DNA from: a virus | Reading direction: 5' to 3' (one strand) | Length of the DNA: 51,171 nt | IMG/VR virus record: IMGVR_UViG_3300032157_000012 | Coordinates: 1 to 51,171 of that record | Part shown: piece by piece, positions 758 through 50,903 of the stretch | Layout: every line of letters starts with the position of its first letter | How positions within the stretch are numbered: position 1 is the stretch's first letter | Translations under genes and position numbers: made by a program | The notes under the pieces: generated by a model | The model's database searches: none | The model's input: only the letters and a program-made list of their open reading frames with translations | What the model was told of the DNA's origin: nothing

Positions 758-768
758 CGTGTGGAGTT
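758..768 (+). promoter_or_regulatory. isolated copy of the CGTGTGGAGTT arm motif, antisense to local genes, 15 nt upstream of ATG 742
   Basis: Exact 11-mer shared with 8 other sites. On the - strand it reads AACTCCACACG-N15-ATG. Confidence 0.5.
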
Positions 769-1201: not shown

Positions 1202-1465
1202 CTAGGCACCGTAGTCTCTCGTGACGGGCTTCTTCGGATCGAGCTCGTCGGCCTTTGCTCGCAGGATACCTGCCATGACTGTCGGGCTGGTCGTCGTGAC
1301 GTTGTCAGTCTCGATCCAGTTCTCACGGTCACGTGGTGCAGGCTTCTTGTCACCTTGTGCGACTGGACCGTTCAACTCGTCATGGGTGGGATACTCTGTC
1401 CACGTCTGGTACTCCTCTACCCTGACGCGATACTTGGTGACACCCTTGTTACTGATCGATGGCAT
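1202..1465 (-). CDS. hypothetical protein
   Basis: Track ORF 1202..1480. ATG 1465 overlaps the polA stop (TAATG). No motif recognised. Confidence 0.5.
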   Translation of the reverse strand: MPSISNKGVTKYRVRVEEYQTWTEYPTHDELNGPVAQGDKKPAPRDRENWIETDNVTTTSPTVMAGILRAKADELDPKKPVTRDYGA

Positions 1466-3870
1466 TACAGATCCCCCCAACTGGGTCCGTAGCTTACGTC
1501 TACTTCGAATGGTACGTATGTTGTGATGCGTTTAGCTGCTTCGACCATCTCATAGCGAAGCAGTTCCGACACGTATTCCAACTGCGACTCGGCCGTCTCG
1601 ACCACAAGAGCATCGTGAATAGTAAGACGCACAAAGCCCTTACCGCGGAGCTGTGGACGAATCCGCATGAAGGCGTCGATACAAATGTCTGAAGCCGTCG
1701 ACTGAGGCAAGTACGACAAAGCCTCGTTGAAGACTTCCTTCTCGTTCTGGGGCGTGATGAGAGCAAACCGTCGACGGCGTCCGAAGGGACTGATGAGATC
1801 GTGCCCCTCAAGGACGCGGTGCTTGATCGACTCCTGCCATGCCACTGTCCTGGGGATCGTATCGAGGAAGGCCTCGTAGTCCCTGATCGCCTCAGCAAGT
1901 GGAATCTTGTACTCCTTGGAGATGGAGTACGCTTCTCGGCCGAATGCAATGCCGTAGAAGAACGCCTTGGTACGAACACGCTGTTCCTTGTTGTTGATGT
2001 CGAACAAGTTCTTGTACAGGCCCAGACCTAGCTGGTTGAAGAGGTCCTCGTCACTGGCGAAGATGTCTCGGAGGTAGTCGTCCTGAGCCAGCCACGCAAT
2101 GACTCGGCCCTCAGCCTGTTTGTAATCCGCTTGGACGAGAATGTTCCCAGGGCGTGAAGCAACGAACTGCCGGCGAATAGCCTTGTCCCGAACAATATTC
2201 TGAAGGTTCGGGTTACGTGAAGCCAATCGTCCCGACGTGGTACCGTGCAGGAGATAGTTGGTAAAGACACGTCCACCGTAGAGCCTTTGACGAATACCTT
2301 TGACGAACGTTCCGTAACGCTTCGCCTCGAAGCGATGAGCCAGAAGCCTGTCGACGAACACTCCAGCACCGCTATTCGGATCAAGCTTCTCGGCAAGCGC
2401 ACTGAGAATCTCCTTACTCGTTCCTGCAACGTTGATGCGCTGCGTAGCTAGGAACTCCTTGACCTGCTTAGGCGACCTGGGGTTGATGAACGGGACTTCT
2501 CCGTCAGTGGCTACCTTGACGATGTTGGAGATGGCGTCTTCCATCTCGTTCAGCTTCTTCAAGTACGCCAGGCTCAGCTCCGTGTTGTACTTGACATCGA
2601 CTGTGATTCCATTCAGCTCCAGGAACATGAGCTGGTTGGAGGCGGCGACTAGGAAGTCATGCCAATCACGGATCGACTTGATCGGAAGCTCCGGGTAAGG
2701 CCAACGCGACTCGTCAGCTGCGATTGGATCCTCTGCCATTTCAGCCACGAAGAGCTCGTAGAGGTCCCATGTGCAGGCGACGTCGAAGGCGTTGTACTTG
2801 TAGAGGATCTCTCTTGGAATGTTAGCGTAGTTGCCTCCCCGAGGTACGAACTGTTTGATCTCGTCGTCGTAAGCTGGTGCGCCCAGTCGTTCCACGGCCA
2901 GTACCTTGAGTCCATGCCCACCTGTACGCTCGTCAAGAGCGTAATGCGCGAGCATAGTATCGAACCACAGTTCCAGGCGTGGAATGGTAGGCCAAAGACC
3001 CGCCAGGTCAAACTTCCCGTTGTGCGCAATGATCTTTGAACGCCGCAGTAGCGATCCGAGCCGTCCACGAACCTGTGCATTCGCCATTGCTCGTTCACCG
3101 ATGACAAGTGCCTGTCCTCTCGTCCAGGCCAGACCCACACAGAGCATCTGGTACATGTTCGGATGATCGTAGGCGGTATCCTTCTCGATGCCGACCTCGA
3201 TGTCAACGACCATCTCGTAGCGATCGTTGGTACGTTGCCACGCCAAGAGGTAGTCGAGAGCCTTGACGGCGAGAAGCGGCTCATCGTAGTACTGCCAGAA
3301 CGGTTCACACCACTCGTCAATCTGTAGACGATTGACCTTCTCGATGTCCGTTACCAGTGTAGGGAACGCGTCTGAATTGCGAAGTGTATAAGCTGGGTGC
3401 CAGGTCGGAACAACTCGCGTAACACTGCTTCCGTCAAGCGCTCGAGTTGGTCGCTTGGGGGGCCCGACTCGTAGCGTGGTAATGGTTCGCGGATCGTCAA
3501 CGAGAGCGTTAGTGGCAGTTCCACCCAGAGCAACGACAGTTCCCACGTTGCTGGTTGTGAGTTCGTCAATGAGACGCTCGCGACACGCAGCTTGTGCTGT
3601 CGCAGGTGGCGTAGCATTATCCGGCGGACGGCAAAGGCAAACATTCGTGAAGAGAACGTCCTTGCGATCAAAACCATTGTACTCCAATACGCGGTCGAAG
3701 AGCCTGCCTGACGGACCCACGAAGGGTTCCTTGTATACAGTTTCCTGAAAGCCTGGCGCTTCACCTACCACCGCGATGCGAGGGCTGATCGGGATGAGAC
3801 TAGGAGCCATGCCCTCATCCTTAAGAGGACATTCCTCACACTTGGCAAGTGGGTGTTTACGTGCAGACAT
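1465..3870 (-). CDS. polA: family-4 UDG-like domain fused to family A DNA polymerase with 3-5 exonuclease
   Basis: N-terminus: CEECPL, GEAPGFQE..PFVGPSGRLF, NVCLCRPP, WHPAYTLRN. Exonuclease: VVDIEVG. Polymerase motifs: DYKQAEGRV, RTKAFFYGIAFG, IHDALVVE. AGGAGGA lies before the ATG. Confidence 0.9.
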   Translation of the reverse strand: MSARKHPLAKCEECPLKDEGMAPSLIPISPRIAVVGEAPGFQETVYKEPFVGPSGRLFDRVLEYNGFDRKDVLFTNVCLCRPPDNATPPATAQAACRERLIDELTTSNVGTVVALGGTATNALVDDPRTITTLRVGPPKRPTRALDGSSVTRVVPTWHPAYTLRNSDAFPTLVTDIEKVNRLQIDEWCEPFWQYYDEPLLAVKALDYLLAWQRTNDRYEMVVDIEVGIEKDTAYDHPNMYQMLCVGLAWTRGQALVIGERAMANAQVRGRLGSLLRRSKIIAHNGKFDLAGLWPTIPRLELWFDTMLAHYALDERTGGHGLKVLAVERLGAPAYDDEIKQFVPRGGNYANIPREILYKYNAFDVACTWDLYELFVAEMAEDPIAADESRWPYPELPIKSIRDWHDFLVAASNQLMFLELNGITVDVKYNTELSLAYLKKLNEMEDAISNIVKVATDGEVPFINPRSPKQVKEFLATQRINVAGTSKEILSALAEKLDPNSGAGVFVDRLLAHRFEAKRYGTFVKGIRQRLYGGRVFTNYLLHGTTSGRLASRNPNLQNIVRDKAIRRQFVASRPGNILVQADYKQAEGRVIAWLAQDDYLRDIFASDEDLFNQLGLGLYKNLFDINNKEQRVRTKAFFYGIAFGREAYSISKEYKIPLAEAIRDYEAFLDTIPRTVAWQESIKHRVLEGHDLISPFGRRRRFALITPQNEKEVFNEALSYLPQSTASDICIDAFMRIRPQLRGKGFVRLTIHDALVVETAESQLEYVSELLRYEMVEAAKRITTYVPFEVDVSYGPSWGDL

Positions 3871-3915: not shown

Positions 3916-4686
3916 CTACGCCTCGAGGCCGTTGGCCCACATCGTGTACGTGTTGATATTCTTCTGCAGCAGCTCAGTATCCAGCGTACGCGTGGAGGTG
4001 AAGTAGGCGTTCGGGCGATCGATGTGTGCACGCTCAGGCTCAGGTACGCCAAGGTCCTCGCCGGCGATCGTGTAGTTGAACGGTGCACTGCTGTCGACAC
4101 CGCGAGCCCAGGGGAAGTCGCGTCCGAGAACGTGTACCTCACCGATCCAGCTCGAGTTGGTGCCGAGGAAGTGAACGTCGAACCGACCGATGCCGAACGT
4201 ACCCTCGATGAAGGTTGCGAGACGGCATCGTGCGGAAGGATCGGCCAGCGTGTTGATCAGGTGACGAGGAATGCCGAGCGTGCCGGCGACGCCGGACTTC
4301 TCCACCTTGCGGATGAAGTCGTAGCACTCCTCTATGGTCTCACCCTGAACCACAGCCATGAGCTGCAGGTGGCTGAAGTCGTCGTCGGACTCGTTCAGGT
4401 CGTAGATGAACTCGTCGATGGCCGTGAGCGTGCCCTCGCTGTTGCAGATCACGTCGGGCATGACGATCTCGTTGGCCTTAAGTGCCAGTGCAGCGTCGAG
4501 GAGATCCAGGTTCGAGACCTGCTCACCTTCCGCAGCGCCGTTGTCCAGGATGATGAAGTCCGCACCGAGCATCTTGTACGTGCTCAGGTAGCTCTCGCGC
4601 TTGAGCTCCTGTGCCAGGACGAGGTGGTAGTCCGACTGTCCTGCTGTGGTCTCGTAGCCCTTGGGTGGGATGAGTGCTGCCTTCAT
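3916..4686 (-). CDS. dpdA: DpdA-like (tRNA-guanine transglycosylase-fold) DNA 7-deazaguanine transglycosylase
   Basis: Track ORF trimmed to ATG 4686 (ATGA overlap with the upstream stop). FIILDNGAAEGE, VMPDV, GIPRHL, HFLGT, ARGVDSSAPF. Sits next to the preQ0 biosynthesis genes. Confidence 0.8.
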   Translation of the reverse strand: MKAALIPPKGYETTAGQSDYHLVLAQELKRESYLSTYKMLGADFIILDNGAAEGEQVSNLDLLDAALALKANEIVMPDVICNSEGTLTAIDEFIYDLNESDDDFSHLQLMAVVQGETIEECYDFIRKVEKSGVAGTLGIPRHLINTLADPSARCRLATFIEGTFGIGRFDVHFLGTNSSWIGEVHVLGRDFPWARGVDSSAPFNYTIAGEDLGVPEPERAHIDRPNAYFTSTRTLDTELLQKNINTYTMWANGLEA

Positions 4687-4991: not shown

Positions 4992-5398
4992 TTGAAGTGC
5001 TCCCTCTCGAATGCTTCCCGTGCGTTCTGGTCGGGGGTGATGCACTTGAGCCCGAAGCGCGACTCGTTGTACTGCCGCTTGGCGCTCCAGATAGCATTCC
5101 AGTCGACGTGCTGGAATGTTTCGTGACCCATCAGGTTGCAGAGGTAGATCAGTACGTCGATCACCTCCTCCGGCAACTCCTCCATCATAGCGGTGGAGGA
5201 GAGACTGCCACGAACGTTCTTCTTGACGAGGTTCGCAACCTCACCGACCTCACCAGCCAGACACAGCACCAGGTTCGGTAGCGACTGGGCCTTGCCAGGG
5301 AACCACCTACCGCTGTCGTCGACGCACTGGGCGATCATCTCCTGCAGAATCATGGCGTCGTCAGTGTTAGTCACCCTACGAGTATCCTCCCACCTCAT
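4988..5398 (-). CDS. MazG-like nucleotide pyrophosphohydrolase
   Basis: Trimmed to ATG 5398 (ATGA overlap with the folE stop). LAGEVGEVANLVKK...EELPEEVIDVLIYLCNL. Confidence 0.7.
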   Translation of the reverse strand: MRWEDTRRVTNTDDAMILQEMIAQCVDDSGRWFPGKAQSLPNLVLCLAGEVGEVANLVKKNVRGSLSSTAMMEELPEEVIDVLIYLCNLMGHETFQHVDWNAIWSAKRQYNESRFGLKCITPDQNAREAFEREHFK

Positions 5399-6000
5399 TT
5401 GATTCCCATCAGGAACTCGGCCTTGGCGGTGCGTTCGTGATCCGCGAACACTCCATGGGTTTCCACAGTACGAGTGATCGTGCCCGGTGTCTGGACACCA
5501 CGAATAGTCATGCACAGGTGCTCCGCCTCCATGACGACGATCACGCCGCGAGGGTTGAGACTCTCGTCCAGGAAGCCTGCCACCTCAGCGGTGAGCTCTT
5601 CCTGAACCTGCAGCTTACGAGCGAAGTGGTGAACCACTCGGGCGAACTTGGAGAGCCCTGCCACCTCCTTGTCAGGGACGTAGCCGATCCAGGCGTGACC
5701 GACGAACGGGACGACGTGGTGATTACAGACGCTGGCGAAGGGAATACGGTTCACCACCACCATCTGGTCGACCTCACTCTTGAAGGTCTTCCACTTCATG
5801 CACTCACCGAGGCAGTCCTTACAGCCAGTGAGCTCGTCCAACATCGAGACGAACCTCTTCGGTGTGTCTTTGCCGTGAACGTTCGTCACGTCGAGACCTG
5901 CATGGATCTGCAGGAGCGACTCAGCGTAGTCGAACGTGTCAGCGATGTCACTGGCCTGCACGGACGGAACACCACTGCCGATCCGAGAAGTATCGAACAC
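5395..6000 (-). CDS. folE: GTP cyclohydrolase I
   Basis: CNHHVVPFVGHAWIGYVP, LSKFARVVHHFARKLQVQEELT, HLCMTIRGV. GTG start at 6000. Confidence 0.9.
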   Translation of the reverse strand: MFDTSRIGSGVPSVQASDIADTFDYAESLLQIHAGLDVTNVHGKDTPKRFVSMLDELTGCKDCLGECMKWKTFKSEVDQMVVVNRIPFASVCNHHVVPFVGHAWIGYVPDKEVAGLSKFARVVHHFARKLQVQEELTAEVAGFLDESLNPRGVIVVMEAEHLCMTIRGVQTPGTITRTVETHGVFADHERTAKAEFLMGIK

Positions 6001-6003
6001 GTA

Positions 6004-6714
6004 TCAGACTCCAATCTTGTCAGGGTGCCAGACGTACTTGTGGACTTGCACGTTGAGACGCCAGGGAAGGTTGTCCTCCATCATCCACTGGCAGAGAGTC
6101 TCCGTAGGTGTAGTGTCCCACACGACACCAGCGTAGACCAGAGGTGCTTCTGGACGGTCCTTGAGGTGCTCGTGGTAGCGTCGCCTGGCCTCTTCGTAGT
6201 CGCCGCGATCCTTAATGGTGAACTTGATCGCATCATGACTCTCGAGGTAGTCCATGTTGTTGCCGAGCGTAGGCGTAGGATCGTACTCCTCACCGCTACC
6301 AGGAAGCTTCCAGTCCAAGATGAAGGTATCGATCATGTAAGGCAGATCGTCACCCCACGAGAGTGCACCGTTGGTGAAACACTCCACCTCGATAGTACGA
6401 TCGTCACCTTCACCAAGCTGCTTCAGCTTCGTGATGAACTGCTTCAGGTCCTCCTTGTACTGTAGGAAGACTTCACCTCCGGTGAGGCAGACGTTATCGA
6501 TGCCGAACGAGATAACCTCGGCAGCAAGTGCTGCAGGGTCCCAGAACTTCTGGAGCTCGCGATACTTCGACGGCTGGATGGCGTGCTGCGTATCACACGG
6601 CCACCCAGCGCACTTGAAGTTGCAGCCCGCAAAACGGACGAAGACAGTGGGCCGAGTGGTGTTCGGTCCCTCTCCCTGGTAGCTCGCATAGATCTCTACC
6701 ACCCTCAAGCTCAC
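6004..6714 (-). CDS. queE: 7-carboxy-7-deazaguanine synthase (radical SAM)
   Basis: Trimmed to GTG 6714 (GTGA overlap with the queD stop). EIYASYQGEGPNTTRPTVFVRFAGCNFKCAGWPCDT. Confidence 0.85.
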   Translation of the reverse strand: MSLRVVEIYASYQGEGPNTTRPTVFVRFAGCNFKCAGWPCDTQHAIQPSKYRELQKFWDPAALAAEVISFGIDNVCLTGGEVFLQYKEDLKQFITKLKQLGEGDDRTIEVECFTNGALSWGDDLPYMIDTFILDWKLPGSGEEYDPTPTLGNNMDYLESHDAIKFTIKDRGDYEEARRRYHEHLKDRPEAPLVYAGVVWDTTPTETLCQWMMEDNLPWRLNVQVHKYVWHPDKIGV

Positions 6715-7193
6715 AGCTGCACCTTCGTAGTAGTACCGATCCAGTCGACACGAACCTCCGCACCGTTCGTACGCGTCTCGTCGATTGAGCAGACGACGTC
6801 TGTTCTGAACTGGCGAGCAGCCCACTCACCGATCCACCTGGCAAGGTTCTCGACCGTGGGCTCGCCCGGAACGGTTGTGAGACCGGGTAGCTTAGTCTTC
6901 CACTCAGTACCGGAAGGATCAGCGAAGGTGAGCTCGCCAGCGAAGTCGTCGTCAGCGTTCAGTACGAGATGGTGGTCGTAGTTGCTGTCAACGTAGCTAC
7001 GGAAGGTACGCTTCGCCGAGCCGAACTCGACAGTGTCACCGTAGCGAGTACGAGCCATGCCGTTGTGACCCTCTTCGAGGCCTGGGAAGGAAATGGTGAC
7101 CTGCATCCCGTGGCCGTGGATCTGCTTGCACTTCGTCGTATCCCTAGAGAGTCGGTGTGCGACCTCCATGTTGTGGGTGATCTTAAGCAGCAT
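6711..7193 (-). CDS. queD: 6-carboxy-5,6,7,8-tetrahydropterin synthase
   Basis: Trimmed to ATG 7193 (GAGGAGAG upstream). KITHNMEVAHRL...CKQIHGHGMQVTISF...NYDHHLVLNADD. Confidence 0.85.
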   Translation of the reverse strand: MLLKITHNMEVAHRLSRDTTKCKQIHGHGMQVTISFPGLEEGHNGMARTRYGDTVEFGSAKRTFRSYVDSNYDHHLVLNADDDFAGELTFADPSGTEWKTKLPGLTTVPGEPTVENLARWIGEWAARQFRTDVVCSIDETRTNGAEVRVDWIGTTTKVQL

Positions 7194-7374: not shown

Positions 7375-7446
7375 CGTGTGGAGTTTGGAAAGGATGTCAG
7401 TACGATGTTAAACAAGGGTGTGGAGCTGCCGCCACAACTCCACACG
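7375..7446 (-). promoter_or_regulatory. full tripartite element: CGTGTGGAGTT-N20-TTGTTTAACAT-N18-AAACTCCACACG (read on the - strand)
   Basis: Arms at 7436-7446 and 7375-7386; core at 7405-7415. Same architecture as 15052-15125 and 22288-22360. Confidence 0.7.
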
Positions 7447-7461
7447 CCTTGCAGCTTCGAA

Positions 7462-8073: not shown

Positions 8074-8925
8074 TTACAGGCTGCGAGGCTGAGAAGAAGC
8101 AGGCTCGTCAGTAGCAGCCTTAGCATCCGCGACCACTCCCTTCCAGTACTCAGTGTCTTCGTACGAGGTATTGTCGTACTGCAGATTCTCGCCGTAGTTC
8201 TCGTTCACTCGCTCCTGAGCCTCGGCGATGGCCTCGAGGCGCTCGACGCAGGTGCCGCACTTGCCGCAGTGGATGTCGCCTCCCTTGTAGCAGCTCCAGG
8301 TGTCCTCGAACGGGACGTAGAGGTAGATCCCCTTCAGAGCGATGTCGGCCTTGGACTGGCCGTGGAAGGGGGCGTAGATGACTCCAGTCACCTCGGTGCC
8401 CTCCTCCTGCTTGGGGATGCAGCCGAAGCCTTCGTTGCCGATTACGATGGAGGCGTTGACAGCGTTGAGGAAGCGAGGGCGACAGTCAGGGTAGACGAAG
8501 TGATCGCCTGAATGAACTCCGGTACCGATGAGGCGGTAACCGTTGTTCACCATGACACCTGCAGCGATGGACAGCATGATCATGTTCCGGTTCGGGACCA
8601 CGGTCAGCTGCATGTTGTCCTCGGCGTAGTGCCCCTCGGGCACCTCGATGAAGTTGCCCGCCAGGTCGGCGCCGACGTACTGCGGAGAGGTGAGGGCCGA
8701 GTTGCTGATCAGGTGGGTGATGCCCGTCAGGTCGACGATGTCGTGGCGCAGGTTGAGTCGCTCGGCGGTGCGCGCTGCGTAGTCCAGTTCCTTGACGTGA
8801 CGCTGACCGTAGTTGAAGCTCAGCAGGTGGGGATTGAGGCCCTGCTGCATCATCTCGTAGACCAGAACGGTAGAGTCCAGACCGCCACTGAAGATGGCGA
8901 CACTGTCGTGGATTCTCTTACTCAC
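8074..8925 (-). CDS. queC: 7-cyano-7-deazaguanine (preQ0) synthase with a ~55-aa C-terminal extension
   Basis: VAIFSGGLDSTVL, NYGQRH, VPNRN, CYKGGDIHCGKCGTCVERL. GTG 8925 with AGGAGGAG upstream; GTGA overlap with the primase stop. Confidence 0.9.
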   Translation of the reverse strand: MSKRIHDSVAIFSGGLDSTVLVYEMMQQGLNPHLLSFNYGQRHVKELDYAARTAERLNLRHDIVDLTGITHLISNSALTSPQYVGADLAGNFIEVPEGHYAEDNMQLTVVPNRNMIMLSIAAGVMVNNGYRLIGTGVHSGDHFVYPDCRPRFLNAVNASIVIGNEGFGCIPKQEEGTEVTGVIYAPFHGQSKADIALKGIYLYVPFEDTWSCYKGGDIHCGKCGTCVERLEAIAEAQERVNENYGENLQYDNTSYEDTEYWKGVVADAKAATDEPASSQPRSL

Positions 8926-14300: not shown

Positions 14301-14689
14301 TACCTCTCTTCCTTCCTGTACACCCACCCGCGTCCGTCGGAACGGAAGCCGATGTAGTAGGGGATCTCCTGAGGCTTCCAGTCAACACGCGTGAGGTCCT
14401 TGGGATGCTGCATGGCACCAGGACGAGGCTTCGCACACTTCGGATGTACGAGCCACCGGTACTTGGACGTAGGTGCAGCCTTACCATCGTAGTCAGGACA
14501 CGTACAGAACTGGGTCGGCTTAGCCCACACTGCAGCGACCTTTGCACCTTCAATGGGCTTGTAGCCAAACGACTTAGAGCCGTCGCCATTCTTGACGGAG
14601 AAGCTCATGATGGCTTCTCCGTTCTTGATCGCCTCAACGAAGGTATCAGCCTCTTCATTGTCCGGGATCTCGAGCAGTACAAGGCGCAT
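14300..14689 (-). CDS. hypothetical protein
   Basis: 129-aa ORF in the gene train; 1-nt overlap with the upstream gene. Confidence 0.6.
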   Translation of the reverse strand: MRLVLLEIPDNEEADTFVEAIKNGEAIMSFSVKNGDGSKSFGYKPIEGAKVAAVWAKPTQFCTCPDYDGKAAPTSKYRWLVHPKCAKPRPGAMQHPKDLTRVDWKPQEIPYYIGFRSDGRGWVYRKEER

Positions 14690-15093
14690 CAGTACACCTT
14701 CATTTCCTTGACGTTACTGTGAATGTTGTCTAGGTTACTGTCCAGGTTCTGTAGTAGCCGAACCTGCTCCTTGAGTAGCCTGTTGGTCTGCTGCTGTTCG
14801 TACACAAGCTGAAGCACAGCGGAGGCAATGGCCGCGATACCGAACGTTCGCGACTGAGCCATGTGCCACCTGTTGTCGGCAATGAGCTGCTTGCCTTGCT
14901 GTGAGGTGGCGTAGCGATACTTCGCATCCTCGGGACCCATGTTCGGGTGCTTCTCGGTATAGGCCTGCTGGCTGGCCTGTAGCTGACCAGCGTAGAAGAG
15001 CTCTCTTGCCTCGATAGCCTTACCCAGGTACTTGAACACGGTACCAACGGTCGTGTGGAGTTTGGATGTGCTGTTAGTTCCCATGTTAAACAT
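14689..15093 (-). CDS. hypothetical protein (start uncertain: ATG 15093/15084 or GTG 15039)
   Basis: 134-aa ORF. Its first 18 codons coincide with the core and inverted arm of regulatory element 15052-15125. Confidence 0.55.
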   Translation of the reverse strand: MFNMGTNSTSKLHTTVGTVFKYLGKAIEARELFYAGQLQASQQAYTEKHPNMGPEDAKYRYATSQQGKQLIADNRWHMAQSRTFGIAAIASAVLQLVYEQQQTNRLLKEQVRLLQNLDSNLDNIHSNVKEMKVY

Positions 15094-15125
15094 CTCCCTT
15101 CGTCTCCACTACAGAACTCCACACG
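15052..15125 (-). promoter_or_regulatory. full tripartite element: CGTGTGGAGTT-N21-ATGTTTAACAT-N19-AAACTCCACACG (- strand)
   Basis: Arms at 15115-15125 and 15052-15063; core at 15083-15093. A variant arm CGTGTGGAGAA lies at 15200-15210, and the inverted repeat acgttaaa/tttaacgt at 15136-15164. Confidence 0.7.
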
Positions 15126-15218
15126 CCTCGTGGATACGTTAAAAGCCCGAAATGGATTTAACGTCAATCTCAAGATCCTACAATTTCCTGAGATACGAAC
15201 GTGTGGAGAACTGTAGCG

Positions 15219-18585: not shown

Positions 18586-18848
18586 TGACACCACCTACAC
18601 AATTGTCGTGGACCATACCTTGCGTGGAGGAGGCCCAGCTCGTGGATCCAGTGACTTACGTCAGCGTCACCGAGAAGGGCCAGGTACTGAGGAGCGACAA
18701 TCCTTCCACACACGGCAGGGATGACAGCTATTAGCCCATGGGTCTTGGTTGGCTGCAGTGCTGTCAGTGAGTGATTAATCCTGTGGATGGTCGTCGCCTG
18801 AGGGTTCAGACTGGTGAAGTGGTTCTGAATCAGAAACCTGCCCTGCAT
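18582..18848 (-). CDS. hypothetical protein
   Basis: 88-aa ORF. Strong SD (GGAGGTG, 4 nt before ATG 18848). Overlaps the 3-prime 74 nt of 18775..19026. Confidence 0.4.
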   Translation of the reverse strand: MQGRFLIQNHFTSLNPQATTIHRINHSLTALQPTKTHGLIAVIPAVCGRIVAPQYLALLGDADVSHWIHELGLLHARYGPRQLCRWCQ

Positions 18849-19026
18849 TGTTCACCTCCAGTCCGAAGTAAGTGTCGGCCTCAGCGATGATGACCACCTT
18901 GCGTCCGCAGTCGCACAGTCGCTGCTCGAGCTTGCCTGCTCGGATAGCTGCATAGACCTTCTGAGGGTAGAGGTCACGCAGCTTAGCATACTGGATGACG
19001 GGAAGTCGAGTGACCTCTACCTCCAT
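18775..19026 (-). CDS. putative HTH DNA-binding protein (excisionase/MerR-like helix-turn-helix)
   Basis: VIQYAKLRDLYPQKVYAAIRAGKL near the N-terminus. Confidence 0.45.
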   Translation of the reverse strand: MEVEVTRLPVIQYAKLRDLYPQKVYAAIRAGKLEQRLCDCGRKVVIIAEADTYFGLEVNNAGQVSDSEPLHQSEPSGDDHPQD

Positions 19027-19027
19027 C

Positions 19028-19399
19028 TCAGGCTACCTGCACCATCCGATAGATGTGTGCGTCGTCATCCACCACGACCATCTCGCCGTCGACCTCCTTG
19101 ATGATGGTCACGGTGAGACGTTCGAGGCTCTGGGTCACAGAGGACTTCTTGTCGCCTGGCGGGTCGAACTGCCATGCACCCGAGTGAAGCTTCTTGACGG
19201 GGTAGTTGTACTTCTTCTGCATGTCGCCGTTGGTCACGTGCGCCATGGTGCCCATGATCTGGCCACGATCGTATGTACCCTTGAAGTGCTTTGTCAGCTC
19301 CTCGATCGTGATACCTCTGTCAGGGTTGTTCCAGAAGTACTGCAGGATGTCCTGCTGACGGCCTCGTGAGTACTTACCTGCTCCTGGTGCTGTTGCCAT
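19028..19399 (-). CDS. putative winged-helix DNA-binding protein
   Basis: RQQDILQYFWNNPDRGITIEELTKHF. GGGAGAGGGA SD. Immediately downstream of the GNCTAACC repeat cluster. Confidence 0.5.
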   Translation of the reverse strand: MATAPGAGKYSRGRQQDILQYFWNNPDRGITIEELTKHFKGTYDRGQIMGTMAHVTNGDMQKKYNYPVKKLHSGAWQFDPPGDKKSSVTQSLERLTVTIIKEVDGEMVVVDDDAHIYRMVQVA

Positions 19400-22126: not shown

Positions 22127-22157
22127 ATTATATCTGAGGTCCTACGCACCCCTTCAA
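22127..22157 (-). promoter_or_regulatory. sigma70-like promoter (class I): TTGAAG-N19-TATAAT
   Basis: - strand reads cctcTTGAAGgggtgcgtaggacctcagaTATAATtgaa. Spacer conserved with 23911-23940 and 26826-26856. Confidence 0.65.
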
Positions 22158-22570
22158 GAGGCACTCTCAGAAATTTTTTGATGCGGCGTTGGTTCAGGAA
22201 CGTTGCTCGGAGGCAACGAAGTCACAGGTGAAGCTGAGTACGTCGGAACGGCCTTCGAAGAAGGCTTCGGGGACGGTGTCCTCGTAGCGTGTGGAGTCTT
22301 GGAAGGAGTCTTCCGACGTTGTTTAACATGCCTCTGTGTCGGTCTCACGAACTCCACACGGCGCTGGGTTCCTGTTGTCGTCTTAGAAGGGACGACGATT
22401 GGTTCAGGACGTTCTCCCAGGTCGCTGTAGCTTCCTGTGGAAGCTGAAGGTTGAGGTATGGGGTCGTAGTCCTTCTTGGAAACGCCGATGACGCTGCCTA
22501 GTGCTATGGCAGGTATGAGACCTACCCCGACGACTGCACTGAAGAGTTGCACCGGCGTGCGAATGTGCAT
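22154..22570 (-). CDS. membrane protein (N-terminal TM, P/S/T-rich tail)
   Basis: AAAGGAG 4 nt before ATG 22570. LFSAVVGVGLIPAIALGSVIGV. Contains the tripartite element 22288-22360. Confidence 0.5.
   Translation of the reverse strand: MHIRTPVQLFSAVVGVGLIPAIALGSVIGVSKKDYDPIPQPSASTGSYSDLGERPEPIVVPSKTTTGTQRRVEFVRPTQRHVKQRRKTPSKTPHATRTPSPKPSSKAVPTYSASPVTSLPPSNVPEPTPHQKISESAS
22288..22360 (-). promoter_or_regulatory. full tripartite element: CGTGTGGAGTT-N20-ATGTTAAACAA-N18-AAGACTCCACACG (- strand)
   Basis: Arms at 22350-22360 and 22288-22300; core at 22319-22329. Lies inside ORF 22154..22570. Confidence 0.6.
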
Positions 22571-23806: not shown

Positions 23807-23877
23807 TGCCCCTGGCAGGAATCGAACCTGCATCGTCGGCTTCAGCACCTTGGCTCTACCATTTGAGCTACAGGGGA
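23807..23877 (-). tRNA. tRNA-like element (probable degenerate or pseudo-tRNA): canonical D-arm, T-arm and acceptor, no foldable anticodon arm
   Basis: - strand: TCCCCTG TA GCTC AAATGGTA GAGC ...21 nt... GCAGG TTCGATT CCTGC CAGGGGC A. 1:72 is a T:C mismatch. No 5-bp stem with a 7-nt loop fits the central 21 nt. No CCA is encoded. Confidence 0.45.
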
Positions 23878-26876: not shown

Positions 26877-26917
26877 TTGTTAAACATGACAGCCAACAGC
26901 GCCAAGAACTCCACACG
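26877..26917 (-). promoter_or_regulatory. half element: CGTGTGGAGTT-N19-ATGTTTAACAA (- strand), directly upstream of promoter P3
   Basis: Arm at 26907-26917; core at 26877-26887. Confidence 0.6.
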
Positions 26918-27828: not shown

Positions 27829-27969
27829 CTAACCCTTCAGAGCACCCGCCACCAACACAAGGAGTGCGAATGTGGGAAGTGCCCACTGCATACCCTGTAG
27901 TACAGCATCCAGGAACTCTAAAGTCCCGCCGATCTTCTTGGCCACTCGTGGCGTGTGGTGTTGTGACAT
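27829..27969 (-). CDS. candidate 46-aa membrane protein (below the track cutoff)
   Basis: Hand translation: MSQHHTPRVAKKIGGTLEFLDAVLQGMQWALPTFALLVLVAGALKG. TGATG overlap with the upstream stop. Confidence 0.4.
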   Translation of the reverse strand: MSQHHTPRVAKKIGGTLEFLDAVLQGMQWALPTFALLVLVAGALKG

Positions 27970-28219: not shown

Positions 28220-28561
28220 CTAGATCTCGACGTGCTTGCTGGTGTACTTGAGGACCCAGGTCGTAACCTCGGTCACCGTGTACTCCTTACGACCGGCGGA
28301 ACCCTTTCCGGCGATCATACCCTTTCCGGCGTAGATGTACATCATCTGCGGCGGGATCTGCTTCGAGGTACCCGTCGCCTGGAAGACCAGGTTGACGACC
28401 TTCGCGATCTTGTACGGCGAGATGGTCTCCGACTTACCGAAGACCTGGTCGGTCAGACCCTGGACGATCGTCTCGAGAGTCAGCTCGGTCTCCGACTCGA
28501 CGACCTCTCCGGTGAAGGCGTCCAGCTGACCGTCAACCTCGACGATGGTGTTCTCAGACAT
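28220..28561 (-). CDS. hypothetical protein with an acidic N-terminus; first gene of the leftward arm
   Basis: 113 aa. AGGAGGAC before ATG 28561. Confidence 0.6.
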   Translation of the reverse strand: MSENTIVEVDGQLDAFTGEVVESETELTLETIVQGLTDQVFGKSETISPYKIAKVVNLVFQATGTSKQIPPQMMYIYAGKGMIAGKGSAGRKEYTVTEVTTWVLKYTSKHVEI

Positions 28562-28643
28562 AGTGTCCTCCTAGGACAGTTGCTAGATCCGTCTGATCTA
28601 GTCGCTACGTGTACGAGACTGAGAGCGTGTCGTACACGACGCT

Positions 28644-28674
28644 ACTATGTCAGAAGGGAATATGGAGTTGTCAA
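28644..28674 (-). promoter_or_regulatory. candidate promoter: TTGACA-N19-CATAGT
   Basis: Perfect -35 on the - strand (28674-28669). The -10 is weak. Confidence 0.3.
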
Positions 28675-28722
28675 GGAACGAATTAAGTTGTTGTTGTTTT
28701 TTTTTTGTTTTTCTATAACTAT

Positions 28723-28751
28723 ATTATAGACGAGGAAAGAGGATCTTGCTA
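28723..28751 (-). promoter_or_regulatory. candidate promoter: TAGCAA-N17-TATAAT, followed by an A-rich tract
   Basis: Perfect -10 on the - strand (28728-28723). The -35 is weak. The leader to ATG 28561 would be about 155 nt. Confidence 0.35.
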
Positions 28752-28762
28752 CACCCGTACGG

Positions 28763-28870
28763 GGTTATGGAAACTAGCGGAGAAATGAGTGTTACCTTGT
28801 ATAACATACACTCAGCAGAGGTTATGGAAACTAGCAGGAAATCATGTGTTACCTAGTATAACATACACTC
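28763..28870 (+). repeat. two tandem 51-nt repeat units with a 57-bp period, each ending GTGTTACC-N3-TATAACATACACTC; a third partial copy overlaps the rightward promoter
   Basis: 28763-28813 versus 28820-28870 match at about 42 of 51 positions by eye. GTGTTACGCTATATAAT lies at 28886-28902. Confidence 0.8.
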
Positions 28871-28873
28871 CCC

Positions 28874-28902
28874 TTGTGGAATTCGGTGTTACGCTATATA
28901 AT
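28874..28902 (+). promoter_or_regulatory. sigma70-like rightward promoter: TTGTGG-N17-TATAAT
   Basis: -35 at 28874-79; -10 at 28897-902. GAGAGGAGG and ATG 28925 follow. Confidence 0.6.
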
Positions 28903-28924
28903 CACGGTAAGAGAGGAGGTCACA

Positions 28925-29329
28925 ATGTACGATGACGAAGACGAAGACGAAGACATGGCTGCAGCCGTTGCCCGCAACCAGGCGTGGGTGAGCGACGACG
29001 AGCTCGCTGGTCTCACGTTGGAGCGAGCCTCGGGATTCAAGTCACTGAATGGCCAGCCTGAGAGCCCTGTCGAGCAAGCGGCTCGGATCATTCGGGACAA
29101 TGCACCGCTGGCGGCGCAGACACTGGTCAGGCTGGCGCGCTATGGCGAGTCGGAGACCGTACGTATGAGGGCCGCTACCGAGATCCTCACACGGGCGGCA
29201 GCGCTTGGCACCACAGCCGATGGGCGTGACCCGTGGGATGGTGTGTACGAGCAGGTCCTGGTCACTCGGCCTCCTGTCGTGATCGACGGCGATGTTGTAC
29301 CAGAGTCAGAGACGAAGAAGCGGCCGTGA
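28925..29329 (+). CDS. putative small terminase subunit-like protein
   Basis: Track ORF trimmed to ATG 28925. Acidic N-terminus, then NAPLAAQTLVRLARYGESETVRMRAATEILTRAA, a pattern common in small terminases. First gene of the packaging arm. Confidence 0.45.
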   Translation: MYDDEDEDEDMAAAVARNQAWVSDDELAGLTLERASGFKSLNGQPESPVEQAARIIRDNAPLAAQTLVRLARYGESETVRMRAATEILTRAAALGTTADGRDPWDGVYEQVLVTRPPVVIDGDVVPESETKKRP

Positions 29330-29394: not shown

Positions 29395-29480
29395 GGTTAG
29401 ACAGCAAGCTAAGCGCTCGCACAGAGAGGTGCGAGATCGTGAAGGCAAGCTGACTAACCTATCGGCTAACCAGTCTAACC
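29395..29480 (+). repeat. GGTTAGAC / GNCTAACC repeat cluster arranged around a central hairpin
   Basis: GGTTAGAC 29395-402. Hairpin ctcgcac-agagag-gtgcgag at about 29415-34. GACTAACC 29452-59, GGCTAACC 29464-71, GTCTAACC 29473-80. Related copies at 29531-39 and 29633-40. Confidence 0.75.
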
Positions 29481-29591
29481 AGCATTCCCTACTGGTTTTA
29501 ATAACACGAGCTGACCCCCTATGGATATCAGTCCTAACCAGCTCAAACTGCGCACAAGCCCAAGCGCTCCGCAGCGCGACGAGACCCAGGC

Positions 29592-29632
29592 CGTGTGGAG
29601 TTGTGTGGCAGGTCTAGGAGGTAGTTTAACAC
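29592..29632 (+). promoter_or_regulatory. half element: CGTGTGGAGTT-N19-TAGTTTAACAC (+ strand), upstream of the packaging/structural genes
   Basis: Arm at 29592-29602; core at 29622-29632. Co-oriented with + strand genes. Confidence 0.6.
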
Positions 29633-39554: not shown

Positions 39555-39751
39555 TGCTCTACAAAGTCACGAACAACGGCGAGGCTCGCACCGTCGATTT
39601 CCTTGGCGTGTTCGCAGAAGGTGAGGCTCGGGACTTCACACAGGCCGAGCTCGAGAACTACATGCACATGAACGGCGTACCAGTGGTCAGCGGTCTTCCC
39701 GAAGACTTCGACATCGAGTACGTCGGCGAGCCTGAGAATGGGGGCAAGTAA
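39551..39751 (+). CDS. hypothetical protein
   Basis: 66 aa; 4-nt and 1-nt overlaps. Confidence 0.5.
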   Translation: MMLYKVTNNGEARTVDFLGVFAEGEARDFTQAELENYMHMNGVPVVSGLPEDFDIEYVGEPENGGK

Positions 39752-40683
39752 TGGCTCCGGGCGTAGGCGCAAGCGGCGTCATGGGCATCGCGCTGGAAAC
39801 GGTGGTCGGCACTTACGTCGCTCCGACGAAGTTCATCCCCTTCAACAGCGAGGGCCTCCTGTACCAGCAGTCCACGAACTTCCGGCGGGCGATCCGCAAC
39901 AGTCCTGACGTGACGTACGCCGTGCCGGGCAACGCTCACTGTGAAGGCGATCTGGAGATGGATGCCTTCGACGACATCCTTCCCTACTTCATGATGGCCT
40001 CGCGCATGGGTGTCGTGAAGACCGGAGCGGGCCCGAACTACGTCTACACAGGCACGCCGAACGCCCTGGCTACGCCTGCCAAGACGCTATCGATCACGAT
40101 CGTCCGCAACGGTGTCATCTTCGGCTACACTGGCTGCGTCGTCGGCAACTTCACCTTCGGCATCGACGAGGGTACGCTGACGTACGCTGCGGGCATCGTC
40201 GGCATGGACGAGGCTGTCCAGGCGAACCCGACGCCTACGTGGCCAACCACCACACCGTTCGGCATGGGGCAGTACATCATCGAGATCCCGACGGCCTCTG
40301 TCGTGACGGATACCGACACGTTCGAGTTCCAGGTCGAGGACAACGCCGAGCCGCAGTTCCGTCTGAAGAACCCTGGACGTGCTGCACAGTTCGTGAAGTT
40401 CGGCGAGCGTGAGGTGACGCTGTCGGTGGAGCGCGACTTCGACTCGCGTACCGACTACGACAACTTCAAGGCCATGACGTCGCAGAACATCACCATCACT
40501 GCGACCAAGGGTACGAACAACCAGATCGTCATCAACGCACCTGTCGCCATCAAGGACACGTACGAGTTGGGCCTCGACAGCCAGGGCGATCTCGTCCGTG
40601 CCGAGGTCGCCTACCAGTGTCTGGTGGGACCTGCTACGCCGACGTACACGATCGTCTGCAAGTCGCAGGAGAACATCCCGTAA
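39751..40683 (+). CDS. major tail protein
   Basis: 310 aa; immediately upstream of the G/GT chaperone pair and tape measure. Confidence 0.7.
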   Translation: MAPGVGASGVMGIALETVVGTYVAPTKFIPFNSEGLLYQQSTNFRRAIRNSPDVTYAVPGNAHCEGDLEMDAFDDILPYFMMASRMGVVKTGAGPNYVYTGTPNALATPAKTLSITIVRNGVIFGYTGCVVGNFTFGIDEGTLTYAAGIVGMDEAVQANPTPTWPTTTPFGMGQYIIEIPTASVVTDTDTFEFQVEDNAEPQFRLKNPGRAAQFVKFGEREVTLSVERDFDSRTDYDNFKAMTSQNITITATKGTNNQIVINAPVAIKDTYELGLDSQGDLVRAEVAYQCLVGPATPTYTIVCKSQENIP

Positions 40684-40692: not shown

Positions 40693-40740
40693 CTCGGGCG
40701 TGTGGAGTTCGTGCAGGCCTCACACGCCCGAGTTTAACAG
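40693..40740 (+). promoter_or_regulatory. 12-bp perfect hairpin (ctcgggcgtgtg/cacacgcccgag) overlapping a half element CGTGTGGAGTT-N20-GAGTTTAACAG
   Basis: Stem at 40693-704 / 40721-732. Arm at 40699-709; core at 40730-740. A second hairpin agtactg/cagtact lies at 40775-96. Confidence 0.6.
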
Positions 40741-50838: not shown

Positions 50839-50845
50839 ATAGACA

Positions 50846-50900: not shown

Positions 50901-50903
50901 ACT

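Follow-up and report, generated by a model that had tools for sequence, protein, structure and literature searches.

The window, meaning the whole stretch of DNA that was analysed, is 51,171 nt long and corresponds to IMG/VR record IMGVR_UViG_3300032157_000012, from an uncultured soil phage. It contains an 11-mer, here called the arm (CGTGTGGAGTT), and a palindromic core that follows it at a short distance. The sites built from these two parts, lettered A to G along the window, and the associated features are as follows:

758..768, plus strand: isolated arm of site A, in arm-2 orientation, 5 nt before the RBS GGAGG and 15 nt before ATG 742
7375..7385, plus strand: arm 2 of site B, reading AACTCCACACG on the transcribed strand, 2-3 nt before the RBS GAGGG and 12 nt before GTG 7362
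7405..7415, minus strand: core of site B, TTGTTTAACAT, with GTTTAAC at 7407-7413
7414..7450, minus strand: predicted terminator-like RNA hairpin of site B (-25.2 kcal/mol), starting 12 nt past the stop codon at 7462 and ending directly at the core
7436..7446, minus strand: arm 1 of site B (CGTGTGGAGTT), pointing with transcription and forming the 5' strand of the local RNA hairpin
15052..15062, plus strand: arm 2 of site C, within ORF 14689-15093 (codons S-K-L-H-T)
15083..15093, minus strand: core of site C, ATGTTTAACAT, overlapping ATG 15093 and ATG 15084, downstream of the RBS AAGGGAG
15115..15125, minus strand: arm 1 of site C, exact copy
15200..15210, plus strand: degenerate arm near site C, CGTGTGGAGAA, two mismatches
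18775..19026, minus strand: gene of a candidate trans-acting factor (83 aa), predicted BldC/Xis/MerR-type winged-helix fold
22288..22298, plus strand: arm 2 of site D, CGTGTGGAGTC, one mismatch
22319..22329, minus strand: core of site D, ATGTTAAACAA, with GTTTAAC on the plus strand at 22321-22327
22350..22360, minus strand: arm 1 of site D, inside ORF 22154-22570
26877..26887, minus strand: core of site E, ATGTTTAACAA
26907..26917, minus strand: arm of site E, a single unit, followed by a promoter-like TTGAGA-N-TATAAT at 26856-26826
27952..27962, plus strand: one-mismatch arm CGTGTGGTGTT in the early non-coding region
28768..28862, plus strand: pair of boxes of a related kind within the divergent control region, arranged as two 57-bp units, each TGGAAACTAGC-N24-GTATAACA
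29592..29602, plus strand: arm of site F, a single unit in the 5' leader of a small membrane-protein gene starting at GTG 29648
29622..29632, plus strand: core of site F, TAGTTTAACAC, 16 nt before GTG 29648
40694..40731, plus strand: predicted terminator-like RNA hairpin of site G (-23.5 kcal/mol), with flanks that covary in seven lineages
40699..40709, plus strand: arm of site G, a single unit 15 nt past the stop codon of gene 39751-40683
40730..40740, plus strand: core of site G, GAGTTTAACAG

Copies and geometry of the arm-core unit

Counting recovered all nine exact arm copies listed in the initial annotation (758+, 7375+, 7436-, 15052+, 15115-, 22350-, 26907-, 29592+ and 40699+). Its two near-copies are also real, with one mismatch at 22288+ and two at 15200+, and three further one-mismatch arms that it had missed lie at 460-, 27952+ and 50459-. 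At one mismatch or fewer, the window holds 13 matches against 1.36 expected, a number reached by none of 100 shuffles. All six GTTTAAC heptamers in the window adjoin an arm, 20-22 nt away, and the composite GTGTGGAGTT-N15-25-GTTTAAC occurs five times (0.00 expected); a sixth case, at 22.3 kb, has a core that reads GTTAAAC in the direction of transcription.

The unit takes three forms: single, two inverted units with a common palindromic core (arm-core-arm, ~72 bp), and two units back to back. The TT ends of the arms are always turned toward the core. The arm-core-arm geometry is symmetric, its sites lie about three helical turns apart, and the two arms are ~50 bp apart around the core. The core is a 9-bp palindrome, T-GTT-w-AAC-A, with T or A as its central base and inverted arms 20-23 nt on either side; symmetry beyond these 9 bp did not exceed that of shuffled controls. 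Dyad symmetry is conserved in sequence at the core, as in the operator of a dimeric DNA-binding protein. Spacing in the left arm of the genome is roughly even, at ~7 kb (0.76, 7.4, 15.1 and 22.3 kb).

The arm-to-start distances given earlier (12 nt for GTG 7362 and GTG 15039, 15 nt for ATG 742) were confirmed. At 15.1 kb, however, the likelier start is ATG 15093/15084 rather than GTG 15039, which places arm 2 inside the ORF, where it forms a roughly 7-codon extension of ORF 14689-15093 compared with relatives. The degenerate arm at 15200..15210 is a remnant of an opposite-facing unit that relatives have at the 15-kb site. That unit also limits the claim that the motif always runs in the direction of transcription: the claim holds in the window, where the single units do face that way, but not in the relatives. 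The whole 22.3-kb element lies within ORF 22154-22570.

Conservation in related phages and a candidate factor

A search in related phages, one of the checks suggested in the initial annotation, found the motif conserved. The unit CGTGTGGAGTT-N20-23-GTTwAACA recurs at matching map positions in >30 metagenomic relatives, with DNA identities of only about 70-77% and protein identities of 30-85%. Exact composite matches were found in 56 IMG/VR stretches, 31 of them related to the window and with arms at the same window positions; the other 25 are unrelated to it and look like chance matches. Across 56 distinct units there is no variation at arm positions 1-7 and 9, nor at six of the core's seven positions (the central T/A being the exception); the spacers are free in sequence and limited in length to 20-23 nt. 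Conservation of the arm is the same whichever way it points.

Synteny is retained at all of the sites, and their decay is gradual, with no presence/absence pattern. Relatives keep the isolated arm of site A at the same site and have arms at about 27.7-28.0 kb, near the 27952 arm; the site F unit was found in 16 related loci, and the single units at sites F and G face the direction of transcription in all relatives. Paired arms are confined to the replication arm. Site D is kept in frame within coding sequence in three lineages. Since this element and arm 2 of site C persist inside coding sequence, selection acts on the nucleotides and not on the protein. Related clades carry variant arms (GTGTGGGAGC in L075, GGTGTGGATCTTTT in L079), and such clade-specific variants would fit co-evolution with a phage factor. 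The early control region has boxes of a similar kind: the GTATAAC box of 28768..28862 is replaced in relatives by GTTTAAC, GTTAAAC, GTAGAAC or GTTATAC, and it is assigned to the same box family as the core because of these exchanges with core-type boxes. The core-like GTwwAAC boxes of this region pair with a different upstream box, an observation that was counted toward an operator reading.

None of 185,579 bacterial and archaeal genomes contains the full element; six genome matches considered as possible host copies are Streptomyces coding sequence or otherwise unrelated, and all lack the core. No match to the region was returned by megablast against GenBank phages, the closest TerL among cultured phages is only 37% identical, the clade has no known cultured member, and a literature search for the sequence string yielded primers only. 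Because distant relatives keep the identical unit at the same gene-block junctions, the arm-core unit is, on this comparative evidence, a real gene-control signal: clade-specific, cis-acting and placed at module boundaries.

Among the proteins proposed as regulators in the initial annotation, that encoded at 18775-19026 is predicted to fold as a BldC/Xis-type winged-helix DNA-binding protein (Foldseek probability 1.0, TM 0.65-0.70 on target, E = 7e-3). Its helix residues are invariant across 25 homologues, and it co-occurs with the motif in every relative examined. The same fold is used by Xis, Cox and BldC proteins, and Cox-type proteins bind short asymmetric boxes. We regard this protein as a candidate partner of the motif. 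The early protein 28220-28561 has homologues that carry no annotation, and its model (pLDDT 80) gave no informative structural match. A comparison of 37 ORFs with Pfam and/or PHROGs, three of them also with PDB sequences, found no sigma factor, RNA polymerase, repressor, integrase, partition protein or recombinase gene, and no family matches for the small ORFs.

Promoter signals and RNA hairpins at the sites

One explanation is that the unit is a phage-specific middle or late promoter, with an activator or sigma-like factor on the arm ~30 bp upstream of the core centre, the core serving as a weak -10-like element for the host polymerase, and the full elements acting in both directions. We consider this possible, if doubtful. 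The bipartite motif with its narrow spacing and the direction of the single units are consistent with it, and the replication genes and most structural genes are without a recognisable promoter, the TATAAT at 34439 excepted. The scarcity of canonical sigma-A promoter-like sites remarked on earlier was borne out for 0.3-20.9 kb and most of the late region: below 20.9 kb there is no coding-strand TATAAT box (two lie on the plus strand), a promoter consensus scan reaching no further than 31 kb returned only shuffle-level scores for 1-20 kb, and TATAAT boxes fall mostly within 20.9-28.9 kb. Furthermore, the core is one base off the early GTATAACA boxes, and the two interchange between relatives. 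Essential replication genes lie downstream of the site B hairpin, so that restart or read-through would be needed there.

The form of promoter proposed in the initial annotation, with the arm as -35 and the core as -10, is nonetheless a poor fit and probably not what the unit represents, given the placement of RBSs and starts, the host-type promoters upstream or downstream, and the element inside an ORF. The implied transcription start does not lie upstream of the RBS and start codon, as it would for a sigma-A promoter, at sites C, F and G. At site C the order is GGAGG-TTTAACA-ATG in four relatives and AAGGGAG-ATGTTTAAC-ATG in the window; with the core between RBS and ATG, a transcript begun past the core would therefore lack that gene's RBS and start codon. 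At site F only 16 nt separate core and GTG, a conserved GGGAG included, and a sigma-A-like extended -10 with a covarying leader hairpin lies ~100 nt upstream of the element. At site G an ATG is found 0-10 nt past the core. Canonical TATAAT promoters follow 40-130 nt past the 26.9- and 22.3-kb elements (sites E and D) and equally far downstream of the relatives' 40.7-kb site (site G) and of a 33.4-kb site in L074.

The sequences themselves are also unlike those of known promoters. No TAnnnT hexamer or -35 match recurs at a consistent position among the elements; the arm-to-core gap is 20-23 nt, against 16-18 bp in sigma-70/sigma-A promoters; the core hexamers TTTAAC and TAACAn are without A-11 or T-7 at most sites; and the promoter consensus scan calls no element a promoter. 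Several sigma-70 placements were tried (core as -10, core as -35, arm 2 as -10, arm as extended -10), and none is consistent, while the familiar SigB/F-type (GTTTAA-N-GGGTA), ECF-type (GGAAC-N-GTT) and sigma-54 patterns misfit in spacing or in the second element. No sigma factor or RNA polymerase gene was seen among the ORFs scanned, and a conserved arm 2 would give antisense transcripts of no evident use.

At sites B and G the transcript is predicted to fold into a local hairpin in 15/15 instances (-13 to -31 kcal/mol). These hairpins are strand-specific and covarying, with many G·U pairs, and only 0-2 nt separate the stem from (G)UUUAAC. GC, CG, AT and TA exchanges occur at flank positions -1 to -7, and at site B eight relatives retain the hairpin with compensatory flank changes and G·U pairs. 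Because a MAFFT hairpin alignment misplaced the 3' strands, pairing was scored on the fold of each individual sequence and tested with chimeric folds, in which the native 3' half ranked first in 9/15 cases and among the top four in 12/15. The tail after the stem, (G)UUUAACA, has three U, or two where the core is GTTAAAC. The 7.4-kb hairpin scored as terminator-like in a scan that left out the 40.7-kb hairpin region. A stable GC-rich covarying hairpin, as expected of an intrinsic terminator, is found only at sites B and G, and no stable local hairpin forms at sites C, D, E and F (-5 to -16 kcal/mol). Within the hairpins the arm strand alone is fixed, its partner being variable and using G·U pairs; the arm must therefore be constrained by something besides the helix.

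The long-range arm:arm RNA hairpin offered as an alternative in the initial annotation is not supported, as no covariation was detected among 26 full elements, whose two arms vary independently. Between arm 1 and arm 2, changes at position 8 are uncompensated in 7/9 variant elements (one compensated, one wobble), and 7/10 variant cases at position 11 are not concerted; positions 1-7 and 9, and position 10 in all but one element, are invariant and thus uninformative on pairing. For most arms, a CACACG-type partner is found in the transcript at a distance of no more than about 75 nt. The variant motif GGCGGTGTGGATCTTTT of the distant relative L079 forms the 3' half and U-tract of classical terminator hairpins; no consistent variant-motif hairpin was found in the distant relatives L075, L080, L085 and L091. 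A role of arm 2 as an anti-Shine-Dalgarno sequence sequestering the RBS was also considered and set aside, the pairing not being general across sites. An Rfam scan of the window at gathering thresholds gave only a tRNA-like match, elsewhere, and E-value scans of the 7.4-, 29.6- and 40.7-kb regions gave nothing relevant.

An element acting mainly in RNA could account for part of this. The arm would be a conserved single-strand recognition sequence, with a parallel in the RAT element of Bgl-type antiterminators, or the site of a translational or processing factor. It would overlap the 5' strand of terminator or structural hairpins, the core would be a U-rich tail or cleavage site, and the choice of termination, processing or translation would fall to a phage RNA-binding protein or small RNA. 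The covarying hairpins, the preference for native 3' halves, the L079 terminators and the CACACG-type partners point this way, as does the proximity of the elements to RBSs and start codons, which recalls the start-associated sequences of Cluster K phages. We judge it unlikely, however: arm 2 is a different sequence in RNA and yet conserved as strongly as arm 1, four sites are without a stable local hairpin, arm:arm covariation is absent, the core is sequence-specific and palindromic beyond mere U-richness, and there is no Rfam match.

Boundary marking and comparison with known systems

A role on DNA apart from transcription (anchoring, looping, condensation, replication or recombination signals, or polar barriers at ~7-kb spacing) is improbable. 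Even spacing in the left arm, symmetric elements with sites about three helical turns apart, and the restriction of paired arms to the replication arm would suit such a role, but every site is placed at a gene junction or a translation start, single units run with transcription, RNA hairpins incorporate the arm, and neither partition nor recombinase genes were found among the ORFs scanned. The length of the full elements (~72 bp) and their inverted ends might suggest a MITE-like miniature mobile element with 11-bp terminal inverted repeats, but this is effectively refuted by synteny, the same positions being occupied in all relatives with no empty sites or target-site duplications. Moreover, conservation is just as strong for single units and for isolated arms, spacers (and thus internal sequences) differ wholly between copies, and bacterial genomes hold zero copies.

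The explanation that we favour, and hold tentatively, is that the sites are recognition sites for a phage-encoded sequence-specific factor and mark the boundaries of transcription units, two of them overlapping RNA hairpins. The unit ggS-CGTGTGG(A)GT(T)-tKG, 20-23 nt, (T)GTTwAACA-nGG would be recognised by what is most likely a phage-encoded DNA-binding protein, and the sites at 0.76, 7.4, 15.1, 22.3 and 26.9 kb would delimit transcription/translation units of the replication arm, those at 29.6 and 40.7 kb units of the structural arm. The bound factor would set read-through versus restart of RNA polymerase at these boundaries, and with it the timing of middle- and late-gene expression. The free spacer of the 7.4- and 40.7-kb sites may have evolved to pair with the fixed arm, giving a terminator-like hairpin that stops at the core's UUUAAC.

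Equal conservation of the arm both ways, the palindromic core and the arms facing it are together the hallmark of recognition on the double strand by a protein that is symmetric or has two domains. We infer that recognition takes place on double-stranded DNA and that transcription is affected; the BldC/Xis-like protein 18775-19026 is a candidate for the factor. An operator acting on DNA only does not explain why the single units, in the window and at the relatives' sites F and G, face the direction of transcription, or why CACACG-like transcript partners lie near most arms.

A bolder proposal, which we put forward as speculative and unlikely, is that the arm-core unit is the cis element of a new phage gene-timing system. 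An Xis/BldC-like or other factor on arm-core-arm would determine whether host RNA polymerase stops at a module boundary or instead continues or restarts there, overriding hairpins encoded by the same DNA. This would amount to a DNA-loaded antitermination/activation device that a lytic, actinophage-like clade with 7-deazaguanine DNA employs ~7 times in each genome.

The arm-core unit adds to the cluster-specific repeats already known in actinobacteriophages, which are common and whose functions, apart from stoperators, are mostly unsettled. The comparative evidence is unusually sharp, with identical sequence across phages diverged to 30-50% protein identity in early genes; the fixed two-part geometry, survival in coding sequence and partial use as an RNA hairpin strand add to the case. 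The unit offers a testable handle on transcription in an uncultured soil phage clade that has no recognisable middle and few late promoters, together with a candidate pairing of a cis site and a small winged-helix protein. It would represent a new kind of biology only if the mechanism proves unusual.

Sites B and G resemble intrinsic terminators and the terminator-then-promoter junctions of compact phage genomes, having a GC-rich covarying hairpin 12-15 nt past a stop codon, then UUU and, in relatives, a TATAAT promoter. Ordinary terminators have neither an invariant 5' strand nor an invariant tail, whereas here both are invariant; moreover, the U-tract is only 3 nt long and four other site classes are without a hairpin. 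The stoperators of Cluster A mycobacteriophages (the L5 gp71 sites) are single boxes in one orientation, about 20-30 per genome, to which a temperate phage's immunity repressor binds; a comparison with them is made in PMC3203893. The present arm is like them in being a short (11-13 bp), asymmetric, multicopy and cluster-specific sequence in short intergenic gaps across the genome, and both presumably act on RNA polymerase during elongation. It differs in that ~10 arms stand at a fixed distance from a palindromic core, in both orientations, often as inverted pairs and in some cases within RNA hairpins, and in that family scans of the ORFs turned up neither a repressor nor an integrase.

Start-associated sequences (SAS) and ESAS are known from Cluster K mycobacteriophages and Cluster EF Microbacterium phages (PMC3203893, PMC7302621). 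The SAS is a 13-bp repeat that contains the RBS, lies 3-8 bp from the start codon and is restricted to non-structural genes, and the ESAS has 17-bp inverted repeats separated by 4-13 bp (PMC3203893, PMC7302621). Like the present units, these are cluster-specific repeats near translation starts, sometimes with imperfect inverted repeats upstream; they are kept even before unrelated genes, are absent from the host genome, and show departures in the inverted repeats that lend no support to an mRNA hairpin (PMC3203893, PMC7302621). Unlike the SAS, the arm excludes the RBS, lying upstream of it and ending 11-18 nt before the start codon, and units also occur past stop codons, inside ORFs and in the structural arm. 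Finally, Cluster O mycobacteriophages and Cluster EG Microbacterium phages carry inverted repeats of 17-18 bp (PMC4351075, PMC7302621). These are likewise dyad-symmetric, conserved within the cluster and situated in short intergenic gaps 14-22 bp before start codons, in 8-35 copies (PMC4351075, PMC7302621). They are compact palindromes, in contrast to the ~72-bp three-part site described here, whose asymmetric arms appear also to function singly.

Phage genome and arm-core motif

The window, 51.2 kb at 57% GC, looks like a complete tailed-phage genome. Rightward genes start at 28.9 kb and encode small-terminase-like, TerL, portal, capsid, tail and tape-measure (1,152 aa) proteins. The replication set comprises PolA with an N-terminal UDG-superfamily domain (1465-3870), a RepB-type primase/DUF3987, an SNF2 helicase, a PD-(D/E)XK nuclease, AAA_24 and DUF669. 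A 7-deazaguanine precursor set is also present, and no match to the DpdA/TGT family was found among the ORFs scanned:

5395-6000, FolE
6004-6714, QueE-like radical-SAM gene
6711-7193, QueD
8074-8925, QueC

Megablast returned no close cultured phage; the best TerL match, 37% identical, is Arthrobacter phage Wollypog. Together with the TerL neighbours, a match to the Pfam domain 'Mycobacterium phage VG64' suggests an actinobacterial host. The sole match of ORF 3916-4686 (256 aa) is a PHROG of unknown function. Leftward genes run from the left end (1-300) on into the right end (50200-51171; genes at 50283-51107, - strand), where they converge on the last part of the rightward late operon, so the sequence is circularly permuted in the form given.

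The 11-nt arm, CGTGTGGAGTT, has 9 exact copies and 13 with at most one mismatch against 1.36 expected, a count reached in no shuffle. All six GTTTAAC heptamers, the palindromic core, adjoin an arm, and the arm-core composite occurs 5 times where zero are expected. Every coordinate and distance in the initial annotation was correct on re-check and its listed copies are real; it had missed one-mismatch arms at 460 (-), 27952 (+) and 50459 (-). Of the nine exact copies, eight lie outside called genes and one is in the first codons of gene 14689-15093.

Across 56 distinct units (arm, spacer and core), the arm consensus is ggS-CGTGTGG-A-G-T-T-tKG and the core consensus (T)-GTT-(T/A)-AAC-A-n-G-G, with spacers of 20 nt (7 units), 21 nt (28), 22 nt (16) or 23 nt (5). 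Within the arm, variation is found at positions 8 and 11, with little or none at 1-7 and 9. The core's palindromic symmetry spans 9 bp and no more, and in every case the TT end of the arm faces the core. Units occur singly, as two units sharing a core with both spacers ~21 nt (26 distinct examples), or back to back (core-arm ... arm-core; inter-arm gap 24-69 nt) at the 15-kb site of several relatives, where the first core provides the upstream gene's stop codon and the second lies between the next gene's ribosome-binding site and ATG.

Scanning IMG/VR for the exact pattern gave 56 stretches, of which 31 are relatives of the window (~68-78% nucleotide identity). The other 25 are unrelated single matches, most of them with a base other than C 5' of GTGTGG, in line with chance. 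Further relatives were added through protein-anchored scans and contig look-ups. Proteins of the relatives are 23-87% identical to those of the window (early proteins often 30-50%), and despite this low identity their arms map to the same window positions:

Motif sites in relatives, mapped on the window
About 0.6-0.8 kb, arm only
7.2-8.1 kb, arm-core-arm
15.1-15.9 kb, motif site
22.0-22.3 kb, arm-core-arm
26-28 kb, variable
29.59 kb, single unit (16 loci)
40.7 kb, single unit (11 loci)

Some copies are degenerate, such as those in metagenomic relatives L070 (22 kb), L071 (40.7 kb) and L074 (29.6 kb). Relatives whose TerL is no more than 66% identical lack the motif; some of these carry variant repeats on the same GTGTGG kernel, namely GTGTGGGAGC (four copies in L075) and GGCGGTGTGGATCTTTT (five in L079). 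Among 185,579 prokaryotic species, one genome each, six matches to the full-element pattern were found, all unrelated (three of them within a Streptomyces enzyme gene) and none with the core.

Two tandem units of 57 bp (28750-28863), TGGAAACTAGC-N24-GTATAACA, lie in the divergent control region (28561-28925), just upstream of the TATATAAT promoter (28895-28902) of the first rightward gene. Relatives replace their GTATAAC box with GTTTAAC, GTTAAAC, GTTAAC, GTAGAAC or GTTATAC; the core therefore belongs to a GTwwAAC family that is also paired with a different upstream box. Other features of this region are an imperfect inverted repeat of 31 nt (28589-28657), a leftward TATAAT at 28728, a long run rich in T and a block, TAACTATATTATAATGC, conserved in relatives.

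Position relative to start signals, promoters and coding sequence

The initial annotation had placed the arm over a -35 region and the core over -10, a geometry that fits poorly with what surrounds the elements. The 15-kb site reads GGAGG-TTTAACA-ATG in four relatives and AAGGGAG-ATGTTTAAC-ATG in the window, and the encoded N-termini align, so the core is the spacer between that gene's ribosome-binding site and start codon. At 29.6 kb, the 16-nt gap from core to GTG includes a conserved GGGAG. A conserved extended -10-like ACTGGTTTAATA lies ~100 nt upstream of this element with a covarying leader hairpin right after it; at ~29497-29562, extended -10-like ACTGGTTTTAATAA leads directly into the hairpin GAGCTGA..CCTAtGG-loop-CCTAACCAGCTC, kept, with compensatory CG/AU pairs, in 9-10 of 11 relatives. 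The 29.6-kb element therefore lies within a transcribed leader. Canonical TTGnnn-N16-18-TATAAT promoters stand 40-130 nt past the 26.9- and 22.3-kb elements; the same holds, at that spacing, for three relatives at the 40.7-kb site and for L074 at a 33.4-kb unit.

The 22.3-kb element, arm pair included, lies entirely and in frame within ORF 22154-22570 (-), which has conserved homologues although the codon-usage gene caller rejected it; its product is membrane-anchored (N-terminal transmembrane helix) with a Pro/Thr/Ser-rich tail. The frame is identical in the window and relatives L003 and L062 (RV(E/V)F ... VKQ ... KTPHA). In L070, where the element is degenerate (two mismatches in arm 1, core GTTCAAC), the arm-1 frame is unchanged (RVVV) and arm 2 is in another frame. 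Arm 2 of the window's 15.1-kb element falls within gene 14689-15093, whose N-terminus is ~7 codons longer than in arm-less relatives. Judging from these comparisons, the element is selected as nucleotide sequence.

These positions at start signals, within a leader, ahead of canonical promoters and inside an ORF count against an activator-dependent promoter, as does the lack of any sigma factor or RNA polymerase gene detected among the ORFs searched. A promoter-like role is favoured, on the other hand, by the distribution of coding-strand TATAAT boxes, which are mostly confined to 20.9-28.9 kb (one exception at 34439, before the capsid gene), and by a promoter consensus scan at shuffle level over 1-20 kb. 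Because replication-essential genes sit beyond the 7.4-kb hairpin, read-through or restart must occur there. On balance this explanation is doubtful.

Two near-identical canonical promoters, CTCTTGAAGGG-N13-AGATATAATTGAA, at 23916 and 22132 (-), suggest a duplicated early promoter cassette. An Rfam tRNA match at 23807-23877 (-; 40 bits, over the gathering score), where ARAGORN makes no call, sits just downstream of the promoter-like TTGAAG-18-TATAAT at 23940-23911. A conserved micro-ORF (40749-40799, +) follows the 40.7-kb element, reading MIEA(I/V)... in the window and three relatives; in others (L024, L026, L030) a micro-ORF MV(T/A)...GLL* starts from an ATG abutting the 40.7-kb-type core, and a TTGCTT-N18-TATAAT promoter comes next.

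RNA structure

A long-range RNA helix between arm 1 and arm 2, the other reading offered initially, finds no support, as the arms vary mostly without compensation. Of the nine elements with a change at position 8, one is compensated, another pairs by wobble, and A·A, U·U, A·G or A·C is seen in the remaining seven. At position 11, 7 of 10 variants are not concerted; the rest of the arm is near-constant, apart from one element that differs at position 10, and is uninformative on pairing.

Folding of flank, arm and spacer gave a two-peaked energy distribution. A local hairpin at the 7.4- and 40.7-kb site classes is well supported, forming in the direction of transcription in 15 of 15 independent instances (-13 to -31 kcal/mol). 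The stem begins 3-7 nt 5' of the arm and finishes 0-2 nt short of the core; the hairpins start 12-15 nt past a stop codon, with (G)UUUAAC after them. From lineage to lineage, flank pairs swap among GC, CG, AT and TA. The arm strand stays constant and the strand opposite varies, with many G·U pairs, giving a helix possible only in sense-strand RNA. In chimeric folds, the native 3' half was best against the other fourteen in 9 of 15 elements and among the top four in 12 of 15 (mean -23.5 kcal/mol native, -17.4 chimeric).

These terminator-like hairpins, which incorporate the arm, favour a mainly RNA-level element. Against it, the 15.1-, 22.3-, 26.9- and 29.6-kb classes fold weakly (-5 to -16 kcal/mol) and no Rfam family matches the element; this account is unlikely.

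A second conserved hairpin family, GGTTAGAC ... GTCTAACC with a loop of 40-60 nt, lies past a stop codon and upstream of an arm at 798-860 and 29396-29479. Its stem is longer in relatives, with compensatory changes (for example GTTAGACGAGCAA/TTGCTCGTCTAAC in L063, GGTTAGACCGGAG/CTCCGGTCTAAC in L071). In the distant relative L079 (IMGVR_UViG_3300043331_000861), the repeated 17-mer GGCGGTGTGGATCTTTT forms the 3' half and U-tract of hairpins at five sites; the 5' half, (C)CACAAGCC, is conserved too, and a stable mini-hairpin motif, GCGAAGC or a one-base variant, follows three of the five.

Candidate factor and comparison with known repeats

Family and sequence searches with the regulators proposed initially (18775-19026 and 19028-19399) gave no matches. 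Modelled with AlphaFold from 25 homologues, 18775-19026 forms a winged helix (beta-alpha-alpha-beta-beta-alpha; mean pLDDT 76, >90 over residues 10-50). The structures that this model matches best are Streptomyces BldC-DNA complexes, the Xis of mycobacteriophage Pukovnik, a DNA-binding protein of phage P2 and MerR-type domains (Foldseek probability 1.0, TM 0.65-0.70 on target, E = 7e-3). Helix residues are invariant in the family, and homologues are present in every motif-bearing relative examined, the comparison set being motif-bearing genomes only. The conserved first early protein (28220-28561) gave a confident model, for which structure comparison found no informative match.

A DNA role outside transcription is improbable. 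That the element is mobile is scarcely credible, since relatives show neither empty sites nor target duplications. We tentatively prefer a trans-acting factor that recognises the element by sequence, in the simplest case a protein, symmetric or with two domains, bound to double-stranded DNA. Taken together, several features favour this reading: an arm that does not change in either orientation, a palindromic core that is itself fixed and set at a constant distance, independent variation of the two arms, persistence of the element within coding sequence, and a motif that differs between clades and that cellular genomes lack. The position of the element at each major module junction, with terminator-like hairpins at two, points to transcript-boundary control: a factor bound at these junctions would control where transcripts begin or end.

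Actinobacteriophage clusters carry their own conserved repeats (PMC3203893, PMC7302621, PMC4351075): stoperators in Cluster A (PMC3203893), 13-bp start-associated sequences with extended inverted repeats in Clusters K and EF (PMC3203893, PMC7302621), and 17-18-bp inverted repeats in Clusters O and EG (PMC4351075, PMC7302621). The arm-core element is of the same broad kind but lacks the defining features of each. Its architecture is distinct, combining asymmetric arms, a palindromic core, three arrangements and a double use as an RNA-hairpin strand.
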